Notes: generated by a model not told the origin, from the letters alone. Positions 4,866-56,439 are shown, counted from the first letter of the stretch. The stretch is DNA of 64,000 bases from a virus (IMGVR_UViG_3300025121_000014:160001-224000), one strand, 5' to 3'. Numbers and translations are program-made.

Positions 4866-5924
4866 ATGAAAAAATTCTCTGAACTAAACAAAGAAAATAC
4901 TAAAGTAGAAGAATCTACAAATAAAGCAGATTTCATAAAAAATCTTATAAATGAAACATTAAGTATCGAAGAAGGAAAAATTAAAGGAATTGATATTTTA
5001 GCTAAAACATTAAATTCTATTATGGATTTAAATGAATCTAAAACAAAAGTTCAAGTTTTAGAAAATGTTAAAGCAATGTCTGCTCATTCATTTAATTTTT
5101 TAAAAATAAACGAAGCAATAGAATTAGAAAAAACTATAATTAAAAATTATGCTTTATTTATAAATGAAGATGGTTCAGAAGGTACAATTGCTGTAGCTAA
5201 TATAGAAGAAGTTGGTGCATTAGTTTCTGAATCAGTACATTCAAAATGTAAATGTGGTGATGATTGTAAATGTGATGACGAATGTGATTGTGAAAAAATA
5301 AATGAATCAGAAAAAACTATAATTAAAAATTATGTTTTATTTAAGTCAGATGATAAAAATGTTCAGGATGGTATAGCACTTGCATCTGTTGAAGATGTTG
5401 ACCAAGCTATTATTGATGGTTCAGTTGAAGAAACATTTAAAGAAATTAAAGAATCAGTTGAAGAAAGAAATGAAGTAATTAAAAAAAGAAATGAAGAAAT
5501 TAGAAAAAGAAATGAATTAAATCCTGATGAAGAACAAGAAGAATTAGAAGAATTAGAAAACGAAGATGAAGAAAAAGGAGAAGATGCAAAAGATATAGAA
5601 GAACAAGAAGTTTTTGAATCATTTGTAACAAAAGTTCAATTTCTACAAGATCCTAGTAAATTAGAAATTGACGAATTATATAAATTAATGGAAAATATTA
5701 ATACCGAAGAAGTATTGAATGAAGATCATTTAACTTCAAAAGATGATAGAATTAAATATATTCTAGATTGTGTTGATAAAAAAGAATGTAAAAAAACAAT
5801 TATAGATTTTATTAGCAAATTACCAAGTTATGTAAAAGATGGTAGTATTAATAAAACAGTTAAACAACTTTCTGATAAAGAAGTTGAGAAATTGTACAAA
5901 AAATGTGAAGAATGTTGTAAGTAG
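4866..5924 (+). CDS. Acidic coiled-coil protein, candidate prohead core/internal protein
   Basis: N-terminal MKKFSELNKE, many (I/L/F/V)xE sites, Glu-rich tract, Cys cluster KCKCGDDCKCDDECDC, internal repeat EKTIIKNY (5126-5151 = 5309-5334); preceded by TATATATAAA. Confidence 0.5.
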   Translation: MKKFSELNKENTKVEESTNKADFIKNLINETLSIEEGKIKGIDILAKTLNSIMDLNESKTKVQVLENVKAMSAHSFNFLKINEAIELEKTIIKNYALFINEDGSEGTIAVANIEEVGALVSESVHSKCKCGDDCKCDDECDCEKINESEKTIIKNYVLFKSDDKNVQDGIALASVEDVDQAIIDGSVEETFKEIKESVEERNEVIKKRNEEIRKRNELNPDEEQEELEELENEDEEKGEDAKDIEEQEVFESFVTKVQFLQDPSKLEIDELYKLMENINTEEVLNEDHLTSKDDRIKYILDCVDKKECKKTIIDFISKLPSYVKDGSINKTVKQLSDKEVEKLYKKCEECCK

Positions 5925-5945
5925 GATAATTTAGTGGATTAAGGG

Positions 5946-5977
5946 AAGGGTTAATAGAAAATATTAACCCTTTTTTG
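5946..5977 (+). terminator. Rho-independent terminator
   Basis: 11-bp stem AAGGGTTAATA/TATTAACCCTT, loop GAAAA, then a T tract, between convergent genes. Confidence 0.85.
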
Positions 5978-5985
5978 TTTTTTAA

Positions 5986-6183
5986 TTAATTTTGTATGAA
6001 TAAGTATTGTTTCCATTTTTGAAAGACTCCACTATTTTCAATTAACTCTATTTCGTCTTTAGCATCATAATCTAATCCCCAACCACTATCCAACATAATA
6101 GGTGCATCTTCATCAAAATTATCTTGTAGATATTTAATCAAATGTTTAACTGTTGGTTCTAATTCTTTTTTCGTGTTTGCCAT
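5986..6183 (-). CDS. Hypothetical protein
   Basis: 65 aa ORF in the minus-strand gene run. Confidence 0.6.
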   Translation of the reverse strand: MANTKKELEPTVKHLIKYLQDNFDEDAPIMLDSGWGLDYDAKDEIELIENSGVFQKWKQYLFIQN

Positions 6184-6186
6184 AAT

Positions 6187-6738
6187 TTATTTATTAAATT
6201 TATTTTGTAATTTTGTTTCTGTTTCTAAACTTTTCCCTTTAATTTCTTCAACTATTTCAGGTGTAAGTTTATTTTTTATAAGAAAATCATTTACTGTTTC
6301 GTCTGATAATGAATCAGATAATGAATGTAAAACTATCGATTTATTTTCATTTGCTAAAATATGTAATTTACCTTCAACTTTGTGCCAATCAAGAACTCTA
6401 TGCCAACCTTTTATTGGTTTTAAAAATATATCATTTTCTGCTATTTTTTTAATCTTATTTTTAATTTTATTTCCTTTATAAAATTCAATTGTTGGCCAAC
6501 CTACATTACCACTAATAGAAGCAATTAACTTATCATCGTTATAAACTTCTGAATATATGGTATATTTACTACGTGCAAAAGTTTTTCTTTCTGTTCTATA
6601 TCCAGCATCTTCACAAATTTTTTCTAATTTAGATATATTTATAACATCAATAATTAAAAAATATAGAAATGCACCAAGCCTATCACAAACCCTTGTTGAT
6701 ATTTCATCATGTCTTGTTTTTAATTCTTCTATTGTCAT
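6187..6738 (-). CDS. Hypothetical protein
   Basis: 183 aa ORF closely packed in the minus-strand run. Confidence 0.65.
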   Translation of the reverse strand: MTIEELKTRHDEISTRVCDRLGAFLYFLIIDVINISKLEKICEDAGYRTERKTFARSKYTIYSEVYNDDKLIASISGNVGWPTIEFYKGNKIKNKIKKIAENDIFLKPIKGWHRVLDWHKVEGKLHILANENKSIVLHSLSDSLSDETVNDFLIKNKLTPEIVEEIKGKSLETETKLQNKFNK

Positions 6739-6752
6739 AATTTATTTATTAA

Positions 6753-54226: not shown

Positions 54227-55086
54227 TAACCAATATATTTTTTAAATATTTCTAACATTTTTGGTCGTGCAAAATCAATTGATGATTTACCATATAGTCC
54301 ATTTTGGATATTAGGATCAGCACCATTATTTAATAATATTTCAGATATTTTTTTACGATTATATTTACTTGCTTTCATTAAAGAAGTCCAATCATTTATT
54401 TTAATATTAGGATCAGCACCATTATTTAATAATAATTCAACAACATCTTCATATCCATATTCAGTCGCAACCATTAATGGAAGTTTAGAACCTTTAATAT
54501 AATTAGGATCAGCACCATTATTTAATAATAATTCAACAACATCATCATATCCCTTATAACATGCCCATATTAAACATGTTCTCCAATCCCAATGCACATT
54601 TTCAATTTCAGGACTTACTCCTAATTTCAATAATAATTCAGCAATTTCTAAATTGTCTTCTTCAAAAGCAGCCATTAATATTGATGGTGGTTCATAAGTA
54701 TTTTCATATATATTTAAATTAATACCCCATTCAGCAAATTTTTTAATTGTATTGCTATCATTATTTCTAACTGAATGAAATAATTTTTCATTAGTTAAAT
54801 CATAGTCTTCTAATATATATTTTTTATAATTTGGATCATTTATATCAAGTAAGTCCATTTTTATTAATTTTATATAATAATCTGGTGTATTTCCACCATA
54901 TTCATTAGATAAAAATTTTTTAATTTCTTCATCACTTTTAAATTTATCATCTAAATTATAACGTCTTATTTTATTTATTTTATCAAGTGCATTTAGATTT
55001 AATAAAGCTTTTTTAATATCTGCTTCTGATTTAGGTTGTAATAAATCTTTTACACTTTCATTTGCAAATTCTTGAAATGTTTTCAT
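54226..55086 (-). CDS. Ankyrin-repeat protein with CTS-like / LxPKSExxI N-terminus
   Basis: The start is more likely MKTFQEFANESVKDLLQPKSE at 55086. ANK repeats include LIWACYKGYDDVVELLLNNGADPN, PLMVATEYGYEDVVELLLNNGADPN and SLMKASKYNRKKISEILLNNGADPN. Confidence 0.88.
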   Translation of the reverse strand: MKTFQEFANESVKDLLQPKSEADIKKALLNLNALDKINKIRRYNLDDKFKSDEEIKKFLSNEYGGNTPDYYIKLIKMDLLDINDPNYKKYILEDYDLTNEKLFHSVRNNDSNTIKKFAEWGINLNIYENTYEPPSILMAAFEEDNLEIAELLLKLGVSPEIENVHWDWRTCLIWACYKGYDDVVELLLNNGADPNYIKGSKLPLMVATEYGYEDVVELLLNNGADPNIKINDWTSLMKASKYNRKKISEILLNNGADPNIQNGLYGKSSIDFARPKMLEIFKKYIG

Positions 55087-55087
55087 T

Positions 55088-55333
55088 TTAAATATCTCCA
55101 ATACCAGAATAGTATTGAAAAAATTTACCGTCTGCATTTAAACGATTGATAGTGTCTTCAATTAACCATTTTGACTCATAGTAAAAATAAATCTGGTCTA
55201 TTATTAATTCTAAATTGAGTTGATAATCAGGAAATAAATTTGTTACTCTTTTTTTGATTTCATTGAAGTATTTCATAAATTCTTCATCATCAAGATATTT
55301 TGAATACTGATTAAATTCTTTAAATGTTTTCAT
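55088..55333 (-). CDS. Small protein with CTS-like N-terminus
   Basis: MKTFKEFNQ; AATATATAC motif upstream. Confidence 0.6.
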   Translation of the reverse strand: MKTFKEFNQYSKYLDDEEFMKYFNEIKKRVTNLFPDYQLNLELIIDQIYFYYESKWLIEDTINRLNADGKFFQYYSGIGDI

Positions 55334-55394
55334 ATATGTATATATTATTTATGAAAACCGAATTTGTAAATATGAAAAGTATTTTTTCTTTTAA

Positions 55395-55823
55395 TTAATT
55401 ATTTTTCATATTTTCTAATAATTTATAGATCTTTTCTTTTCTACTTTGTTTTTCTAATATCAGTTGATATGTTGCTACAATTAATTTTTCGTATACTGAA
55501 TTCATATTACGTTTAATATCCGTAAGATTTACTGTAGAATTAAATTGTGGATATGTTTTATAAAACTTATAACTTGTTCTAACACTACTACATTCCTTTA
55601 TATAGATACGAGGTACACCATATTTAATAGCGGTAGATGTAACTGTATTATAAACCCAACCTAATTTTTGACTATTTAATTTTAATTTGTATACTACAAA
55701 TCTTTTACTATTATCACTTATGTGAATTTTAGTTAAAAGATTATATAAAGTCATAAATATATCATTTCTAACGGTTAACCTAGACATATCTCGCCAGAAT
55801 AGTTCATCTAATTTTTCATCCAT
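55395..55823 (-). CDS. Hypothetical protein with C-terminal RxxKIxKL motif
   Basis: SRKEKIYKLLE. Confidence 0.55.
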   Translation of the reverse strand: MDEKLDELFWRDMSRLTVRNDIFMTLYNLLTKIHISDNSKRFVVYKLKLNSQKLGWVYNTVTSTAIKYGVPRIYIKECSSVRTSYKFYKTYPQFNSTVNLTDIKRNMNSVYEKLIVATYQLILEKQSRKEKIYKLLENMKNN

Positions 55824-55960
55824 AATTTTAAATTAAAGGGAATAGTAAAATAGTATGGGAAATAAAACCAAAATCTATGTAAATTATTCATAACAGTGTA
55901 TCACAGTTAATCGTTTTAACGAAAATATTAAAATTATTTTAACTAATTTACTATTCGTTT

Positions 55961-55992
55961 CAAATATACTAAAAATTTATATTAAAAACAAA
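55961..55992 (-). promoter_or_regulatory. Bacteroidota sigma70-type promoter (-33/-7)
   Basis: Minus strand TTTG-N20-TATATTTG. Confidence 0.65.
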
Positions 55993-56439
55993 TTAATTGT
56001 TCATTTTAAACGTTATTCTCATTATGTAACCATTATCAACTCCTTCAGTCCAGGCTTCGTGCCAAAAATATTTTTTATCTAATACTGTTAAATTAAATTC
56101 TGTTGCTAATGGAGTAATTCTTTCGTCTAAAAATTTTTGAAGTGCTTCTTCTTTATTTAATCCTTTGTATTCTATTTTATTATATAATCCAATCCAACAT
56201 TCTTTTATCCAACCTTCCCAATAATTAAATTCACCATTACCTAAATTTTCAATATAAGTTTGCCAGGGATATCCATCATAACCGTCCAATAAAGCATCAT
56301 ATTCGACTTCTTCTATATTATATTCTTTATCTTTCTCTAATTCATTAATATATTCTTCTATCAAATCCATTCTTAATGCATCTGATGGTAATTTTTTTTC
56401 ATTATAAGATTCATTTATAAATTGTTTAAATCTTTTCAT
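55993..56439 (-). CDS. Hypothetical acidic protein with CTS-like N-terminus
   Basis: MKRFKQFINES. Confidence 0.62.
   Translation of the reverse strand: MKRFKQFINESYNEKKLPSDALRMDLIEEYINELEKDKEYNIEEVEYDALLDGYDGYPWQTYIENLGNGEFNYWEGWIKECWIGLYNKIEYKGLNKEEALQKFLDERITPLATEFNLTVLDKKYFWHEAWTEGVDNGYIMRITFKMNN

Follow-up and report, generated by a model that had tools for sequence, protein, structure and literature searches.

Do genes of a huge phage that begin with a short leader resembling the capsid-targeting sequence (CTS) of bacteriophage T4 encode proteins that are loaded into the phage head? The question is raised by a 64,000-nucleotide (nt) stretch of viral DNA (IMGVR_UViG_3300025121_000014:160001-224000; hereafter, the window), for which the initial annotation listed nine such N-termini and proposed a modular system that packages many different proteins for co-injection. 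All nine strings were found at the coordinates and on the strands quoted, and the T4 leaders had been quoted correctly: in the T4 genome (NC_000866), ipII and ipIII start with MKTYQEFIAE, and ipI starts with MKTFKEF and runs to ...ITE. The strings do span positions 4,866 to 56,439, but the credible members cluster at 49.9-56.4 kb. There, genes D, E, G, and I and, less surely, F and H encode what we regard, with a probability of roughly 0.58, as a T4-type N-terminal propeptide acting by the targeting and cleavage mechanism proposed below; the leader-bearing proteins are thus probably packaged head proteins.

The idea of a portable, Glu-ended, T4 CTS-like leader on different proteins was supported by the enrichment of the motif at gene starts, composition controls, conservation in orthologues, the existence of leaderless distant orthologues, and motif repeats in the protease-scaffold genes of relatives. 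Three accompanying claims fell away, namely that the payloads are all unrelated, that ATATATA motifs mark late expression, and that the nine are equal candidates.

Grading of the nine N-termini

We defined the full T4-type motif as aromatic-x-x-Phe-[I/L/A]-x-Glu. The nine genes, lettered A to I by position, are as follows.

49946-50638, + strand: gene D, 230 amino acids (aa); full motif with one extra residue (MKKFNEFILNE; leader at 49946-49978), followed by a conserved two-domain alpha/beta body; between an 873-aa gene and a gp6-like baseplate gene
52304-53038, + strand: gene E, 244 aa; full motif (MKTYEEFINE; leader at 52304-52333), four ~32-aa helical repeats, and a C-terminal DUF8033 domain; directly after the gp6-like gene
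54226-55086, - strand: gene G, 286 aa; full motif (MKTFQEFANE; leader at 55057-55086), one family-module repeat, then ankyrin repeats
55993-56439, - strand: gene I, 148 aa, acidic; full motif (MKRFKQFINE; leader at 56410-56439)
53744-54226, - strand: gene F, 160 aa; front half only (MKNFKNFING, with the aromatic pair and Gly replacing Glu); paralogue of C, E, and G
55088-55333, - strand: gene H, 81 aa; front half only, without the Glu site (MKTFKEF, identical to T4 IPI residues 1-7); first gene of the H-G-F unit
44850-45506, - strand: gene C, 218 aa; weak, with the degenerate leader MKYLKTYEG; paralogue of E and G
4866-5924, + strand: gene A, 352 aa; weak candidate with a poor match (MKKFSELNKE); isoelectric point (pI) 4.6, predicted to be disordered
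40682-41023, + strand: gene B, 113 aa; weak candidate with NFKNYIMNE at residues 13-21, which is N-terminal only if the start is at 40703

The leader begins at Met1 in D, E, F, G, H, and I (in B only with the alternative start), and the same six have Phe or Tyr at position 4 and Phe at position 7; gene A has Leu at position 7, and gene C does not fit. Position 8 is Ile or Leu and position 10 is Glu in E, I, and D (shifted by one residue in D), and G has Ala at position 8. No [I/L]-x-E site occurs among the first 32 residues of F, H, or C. The nine are therefore of unequal quality, four with the full motif, two with its front half, and three weak. Nor are all payloads unrelated, as had been supposed: the genes at 45506, 52304, 54226, and 55086 (C, E, F, and G) are paralogues. 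Comparison with the leaders removed showed the payloads of A, B, D, H, and I to be mutually unrelated.

Enrichment of the leader motif at gene starts

Judged from its genes, the huge phage from which the window derives is T4-related: its topoisomerase II is split and of the T4 type, it has a gp6-like gene, and its nearest named relative, LR756501, itself carries head genes in T4 order. The best named match of the topoisomerase was LR756501/LR756503, a 735-kb uncultured phage (52.6% identity). Homologues of 30 of the 85 window proteins were found in LR756501, where the window locus 47322-53743 is syntenic.

The strict pattern MK[TKRN][FY]x[EQKN]F matched five of the 85 called starts in the window and, in addition, the true start of gene G at 55086, compared with one of the ~2,500 other ATG codons, and this one opens a dead frame. 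Public gene callers also chose 55086 for gene G (286 aa), 1 nt past the stop of gene H. In LR756501, the leader pattern was found at 17 of 1,006 called starts and at six of 21,005 other ATGs (p about 1e-18); three of these six (604837, 670257, and 166695) look like real starts, giving ~20 genes overall. The enrichment at starts was 50-90 times across the window and LR756501.

At the DNA level, the pattern encoding M-K-x-[FY]-x-x-F-[ILVMF]-x-E occurred twice in the window, with 0.01 expected from shuffled sequences. We counted this pattern together with an M-[ILV]-K variant in other genomes, using the reversed pattern as a control. There were 14 matches in LR756501 (none for the control) and three in T4, compared with one in Bacillus phage G (498 kb; the control also gave one) and none in Staphylococcus phage K or Clostridium phage c-st, all three of which are AT-rich and not T4-like. 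On these counts, the leader motif is real and lineage-wide and not an artefact of composition. Matches of a relaxed leader pattern at 18970, in the topoisomerase gene, and in the gp6-like gene were treated as chance, given a background of ~2%.

Conservation of the leader among homologues

Homologues of gene D (n = 48) occur in many huge-phage contigs, and 39 of the 42 aligned keep a leader of 10-14 residues with Tyr/Phe and Phe that ends in [I/L/M]-x-E. Conservation reaches 90% or more at F7 and E11, and insertions and deletions within the leader leave the [I/L/M]-x-Glu ending intact. Two distant homologues (P0203 and P0204) and the LR756501 homologue are leaderless, their first residue coinciding with the start of the mature domain. 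Because the ending is kept across the family and cleanly absent from the most distant homologues, the leader behaves as a detachable, selected module. The structural model of gene D had a predicted local distance difference test score (pLDDT) of 86.7, with low confidence over the leader; fold searches with this model returned no clear known fold and identified neither a known baseplate protein nor a known head protein.

The leader of gene E is identical to that of T4 ipII/ipIII at 8 of 10 positions, and F7 and E10 are invariant in its orthologues (33-51% identity). Its residues 1-13 weakly matched positions 1-13 of phrog_2667, annotated as internal head protein (E 0.018). The C-terminus corresponds to DUF8033, on the basis of precomputed PF26096 assignments for the protein and its orthologues and a match to phrog_4264 (2.5e-13; model length, 93 positions), and tblastn located this domain in Staphylococcus, Lactobacillus, and Bacillus phages. 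Residues 1-140 were modelled with a pLDDT of 88 and a helix over residues 4-16; in this confident model of the module, helical hairpin repeats come after the leader helix. A fold search with the repeat module gave no convincing match among solved structures.

Genes C, E, F, and G have in common one to four ~32-residue helical repeats after the leader, and C and G are 71% identical across 48 post-leader residues. With thresholds of E <= 1e-3 and E <= 1e-10, an N-terminal profile search recovered 429 and 144 cluster representatives, respectively, most of them matched from residues 1-4, so that the family comprises at least 429 sequence clusters. Its consensus reads M-K-(T/K)-(F/Y)-x-x-(F)-(I/Y)-N-E, then (S/G)-(L/V/I)-R-D-x-M-x-P-K-S-E-E-E-I. 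The Glu was the sole column conserved at 90% or more across 134 members; among 109 representatives in which the PKS-type anchor was located, the residue before this Glu is Asn in 89 and the residue after it is Ser or Gly in 93. Starts of the MKYLKTY type, as in gene C, are common across the wider family. Ankyrin repeats follow the module in 47 of the 134 members, as in gene G (PF00023, 2.4e-28; PF12796, 2.4e-26), and leucine-rich repeats follow in a few. The family is marginal in LR756501, and the 70 N-terminal residues of gene G had no tblastn match in GenBank phages.

For the remaining candidates, the homologue search with gene I returned only itself, with no usable Atlas lead, and gene A gave no match among GenBank phages and no Atlas lead. 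Gene A may have a longer leader ending in NLINE at residue 30, contains an internal Y-A-L-F-I-N-E, and could be a prohead-core-like protein. It also has an internal duplication (…KTIIKNY-[AV]-LF…) around a Cys-rich stretch with a weak metallothionein-like match.

Leader-like repeats in the protease-scaffold proteins of relatives

The portal, PF03420 protease domain, and major capsid protein genes of LR756501 stand in T4 order, with scores of 236, 24 (under the curated cut-off), and 83 bits, respectively. The open reading frame (ORF) with the protease domain (73913-76336; 807 aa) carries about a dozen 14-residue repeats containing Y-S-E-Y-I-A-E. Thirty IMG/VR relatives with 57-100% identity over the protease domain have ORFs of ~800 aa with 10-16 copies of Y-S-E-Y-[ILV]-A-E. 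A contig with a gene E orthologue shares its sample of origin with one of these relatives, L074. T-Y-E-E-F-I-N-E-S-V-K-D-L-L of gene E can be aligned with the repeat unit Y-S-E-Y-I-A-E-N-L-D-N-N-I-A, a likeness that could explain why conservation extends beyond the proposed cut.

In T4, residues 59-65 of gp23 are F-G-S-F-L-T-E, and gp22 starts with M-L-K-E-Q-L-I-A-E. T4 gp23 is cut after Glu65, and by its likeness to this site the leader pattern is the substrate pattern of the protease. Mutational work on the T4 leader assigned residues 4 and 7 to targeting and residues 8 and 10 to processing (PMC9026906).

The predicted complex between two copies of the L074 scaffold repeat region and residues 1-60 of gene E, chains taken from different phages, scored 0.00, a result that speaks neither for nor against an interaction. 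The capsid protein encoded beside the protease-scaffold gene has W-M-S/A-E-Y-A-E near residues 31-37.

Transcription units and expression timing

Genes D, E, and I lie in units with the following neighbours.

47322-49943, + strand: conserved 873-aa gene, first of the unit that continues with D, the gp6-like gene, and E; ATATATA at 47284-47290
50640-52301, + strand: gp6-like baseplate wedge gene (phrog_219, 3e-16; 44% identity to LR756501 575385-577223)
56436-57011, - strand: NUDIX hydrolase gene, first of the unit with gene I; ATATATA at 57031-57037 and 57046-57052

D and E form a tight unit with the baseplate genes, the gp6-like gene running in the same direction with intergenic gaps of 1-2 nt. 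The 873-aa gene is 41% identical to LR756501 568437-571142, and that syntenic locus also contains leader-bearing genes. Gene I overlaps the stop of the upstream NUDIX gene, and the two therefore look co-transcribed.

ATATATA was found 12-42 nt upstream of most units carrying candidates (A, C, H-G-F, NUDIX-I, and 47322-D-gp6-E), as the initial annotation had noted; sites in the window include 627, 4836, 40656-40676, 47284, and 61141, and the usual distance to the start codon is 5-9 or 15-29 nt. Its value as a marker of late expression did not hold up. The motif also stands upstream of the dihydrofolate reductase and topoisomerase II genes of the window, and in LR756501 [AT]ATATATA precedes 207 of 1,006 genes (21%; 17 expected), including those for portal, protease, capsid, and baseplate proteins and for topoisomerase II and replication. 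A late promoter was accordingly rejected, since topoisomerase II and a fifth of the LR756501 genes have the same element, which by its distribution is a general promoter-like one. The sole pointer to late expression of D and E is their tight operon with baseplate genes, which hints at it.

In three relatives (L045, L046, and L049), the gene E orthologue lies directly after a NUDIX gene and, in L049, between NUDIX and dihydrofolate reductase genes. The window has these two side by side at 3-1174, and gene E lies 51 kb away behind the gp6-like gene; this difference in placement suggests that cargo genes move within genomes. A parallel with the T4 nudE-e-ipIII-ipII locus was dropped because the NUDIX gene beside the E orthologues corresponds to that at window 3-563 and not to the one next to gene I.

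Proposed mechanism and alternative explanations

In the mechanism that we propose, the leader would form a short helical segment whose aromatic residues lie three positions apart; [I/L/M/A]-x-Glu and a small residue would come next. The leader resembles one unit of the 14-residue repeat Y-S-E-Y-I-A-E-N-L-D-x-x-I-x of the relatives' protease-scaffold proteins. During prohead assembly, it would dock onto the scaffold-protease core and bring its protein into the head. A Glu-specific prohead protease of the T4 type would then cut after [I/L/M]-x-Glu and free the mature protein inside the capsid, where it would stay and from which it might be ejected with the DNA.

More tentatively, and with the odds rather against it, the system may amount to scaffold mimicry, in which the leader is a single copy of the scaffold repeat and any protein acquiring it co-assembles with the core, is packaged, and is cut free. 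Huge phages of this clade would in this way load dozens of different proteins for delivery to the host, including a previously undescribed family of at least 429 clusters with an N-terminal module of ~30 residues, helical repeats, and ankyrin or other binding domains.

If the leaders act as in T4, the set of proteins that a huge phage carries in its capsid, and probably delivers with its DNA, could be predicted from sequence alone. This would provide a list of candidate first-acting host-takeover or counter-defence proteins for uncultivated phages, among them ankyrin-repeat and DUF8033 proteins. It would also suggest likeness to a scaffold repeat as a simple physical basis of targeting, for which we know of no settled account even in T4, and would offer a portable packaging tag for engineering.

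Several observations weigh against packaging in the head. The T4-type protease was seen in relatives only, the head module of this phage lying outside the window. Gene D, a conserved gene within a baseplate locus, could encode a component of the tail, and genes F and H are without the Glu site. The ATATATA element is uninformative on timing because replication-type genes and 207 of 1,006 LR756501 genes have it. T4 gp61.1, a 54-aa hypothetical protein encoded beside the primase gene in the early region (NC_000866 18966-19130), starts with MKTFKEFIKE and is not known to be a head protein; since it carries a full CTS-like leader, the motif alone does not prove packaging. T4 internal proteins are basic, whereas the pI of most candidates is 4.6-6.2, so that the payloads are acidic to neutral. 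Finally, strong conservation in the C/E/F/G family continues past the proposed cut (S-[VIL]-R-D-x-M-x-P-K-S-E-E-E-I), and the functional module is therefore longer than the 10 residues of T4 and may act otherwise.

The acidic payloads and gp61.1 would suit an N-terminal module that serves as an address or docking tag for a destination other than the head, such as baseplate or tail assembly, a phage-made compartment, a chaperone, or export. So would the position of D and E in a baseplate unit, the leader-bearing genes in the LR756501 baseplate locus, and the ~15 conserved residues beyond the proposed cut. We consider such a tag unlikely because the motif equals T4 prohead-protease substrate sites and recurs 10-16 times in the relatives' head protease-scaffold genes, and because no residue of the family is better conserved than the Glu, as would suit a Glu-specific cut. 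We also know of no tail or export signal that resembles the leader.

Slightly less probable still is a leader that is a cleavable propeptide and nothing else, by which the prohead protease or another Glu-specific protease would switch these proteins on or off late in infection, with no packaging or injection. The best conservation of the leader, at [I/L/M]-x-Glu and the small residue, is what this predicts. However, the T4 prohead protease acts inside proheads, and its substrates must therefore reach them. The aromatic pair is conserved as well, and in T4 it serves targeting rather than cutting (PMC9026906).

That the shared start has no function and reflects paralogue descent and a composition rich in Lys, Asn, Phe, Ile, and Glu, with Met-Lys starts, at 22% GC is very improbable: four of the nine genes are paralogous, the genome is very AT-rich, and the relaxed pattern also reaches the gp6-like and topoisomerase genes at its ~2% background, but the controls largely refute this explanation, as mutually unrelated proteins carry the motif, which is 50-90 times enriched at starts, absent from shuffles, nearly absent from AT-rich non-T4-like phages, kept in orthologues at 33-60% identity, and cleanly gone in the most distant ones.

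Genomic context of the window

The guanine-cytosine (GC) content of the window is 21-25% throughout, and the source phage, uncultivated and from groundwater, is described as very AT-rich, with 22% GC. The ~85 genes called are tightly packed, and ribosome-binding sites are not obvious. Gene content includes nucleotide metabolism, a sugar-modification and glycosyltransferase block of ~25 kb, the split T4-type topoisomerase II, homing endonucleases, and the T4 gp6-like baseplate wedge. Contigs of Rifle groundwater metagenomes carry identical genes, and 232,944 bp is the longest contig listed for the cluster to which the gene E protein belongs. Megablast gave no match among GenBank phages, and an exact 42-mer of the window was absent from IMG/VR and from the JGI metagenome contigs.

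The topoisomerase II (35241-40496, - strand) has its ATPase part in ORF 38697-40496 and its Toprim and cleavage part in 35241-37388, with extra sequence between the halves that includes a 427-aa ORF (37366-38649; phrog_22677); the LR756501 homologue is one ORF of 1,082 aa. The split looks like a mobile insertion. The co-directional sugar-modification block (9879-35193, - strand) includes two DegT-type aminotransferases, NAD-dependent epimerase/dehydratase-like genes, and many family-2 and other glycosyltransferases, and several of its genes have homologues dispersed across LR756501. Three genes resemble homing or HNH endonucleases (phrog_559 and phrog_3339), located at 46148-47047 (- strand), 59685-61121 (+ strand), and 63332-64000 (- strand); Mom-like models also match two of them. 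The proteins encoded at 57127-58020 (+ strand) and 6753-7004 (- strand) have hydrophobic, lipoprotein-like N-terminal signal sequences (MKKLLLLLASLF… and MQKLLLILIIALFSSC…), and a family scan of the former found no family match.

Comparison with known systems

Our literature search found no paper linking capsid targeting sequences or such leader sets with huge phages. The closest known system is the CTS of T4 IPI, IPII, and IPIII, which is removed by gp21. Like the leaders described here, it occupies 10-14 residues at the extreme N-terminus, starts with Met-Lys, has aromatic residues at positions 4 and 7, ends, as do the leaders of D, E, and I, in Ile/Leu-x-Glu followed by a small residue, and precedes mature parts that are unrelated to one another; both phages are of T4 kinship. 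The two differ in what follows the leader: the mature parts here are not homologous to T4 internal proteins, and matches to internal head proteins in PHROGs cover residues 1-13 only. Compared with those of T4, the mature parts in the window are also mostly acidic and of greater size, some being ankyrin-repeat or repeat-module proteins; each genome carries more copies; and, in one large family, conservation passes the proposed cut site. By sequence, the leaders resemble the T4 CTS, and the mature parts are not those of T4 internal proteins.

The same pattern as in the leaders appears in the T4 gp23 propeptide site and at the start of the gp22 scaffold. In the relatives, protease and scaffold-like repeats are fused in one ~800-aa ORF with a regular 14-residue repeat, whereas T4 has separate gp21 and gp22 and no such array.

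A further comparison is offered by the phiKZ-like giant phages, in which prohead-protease sites follow [S/A/G]-x-Glu and propeptides are long and diverse, without a common 10-residue leader. The leaders described here are, in contrast, short and stereotyped; three residues ahead of the proposed cut they carry Ile, Leu, or Met (gene G has Ala), which is T4-like and departs from the [S/A/G]-x-Glu motif. Two published accounts report that many different ejection proteins are packaged in the heads of these giant phages and undergo cleavage after Glu by a prohead protease related to that of T4 (phiKZ gp175 and SPN3US gp245; PMC5694885, PMC10052503).

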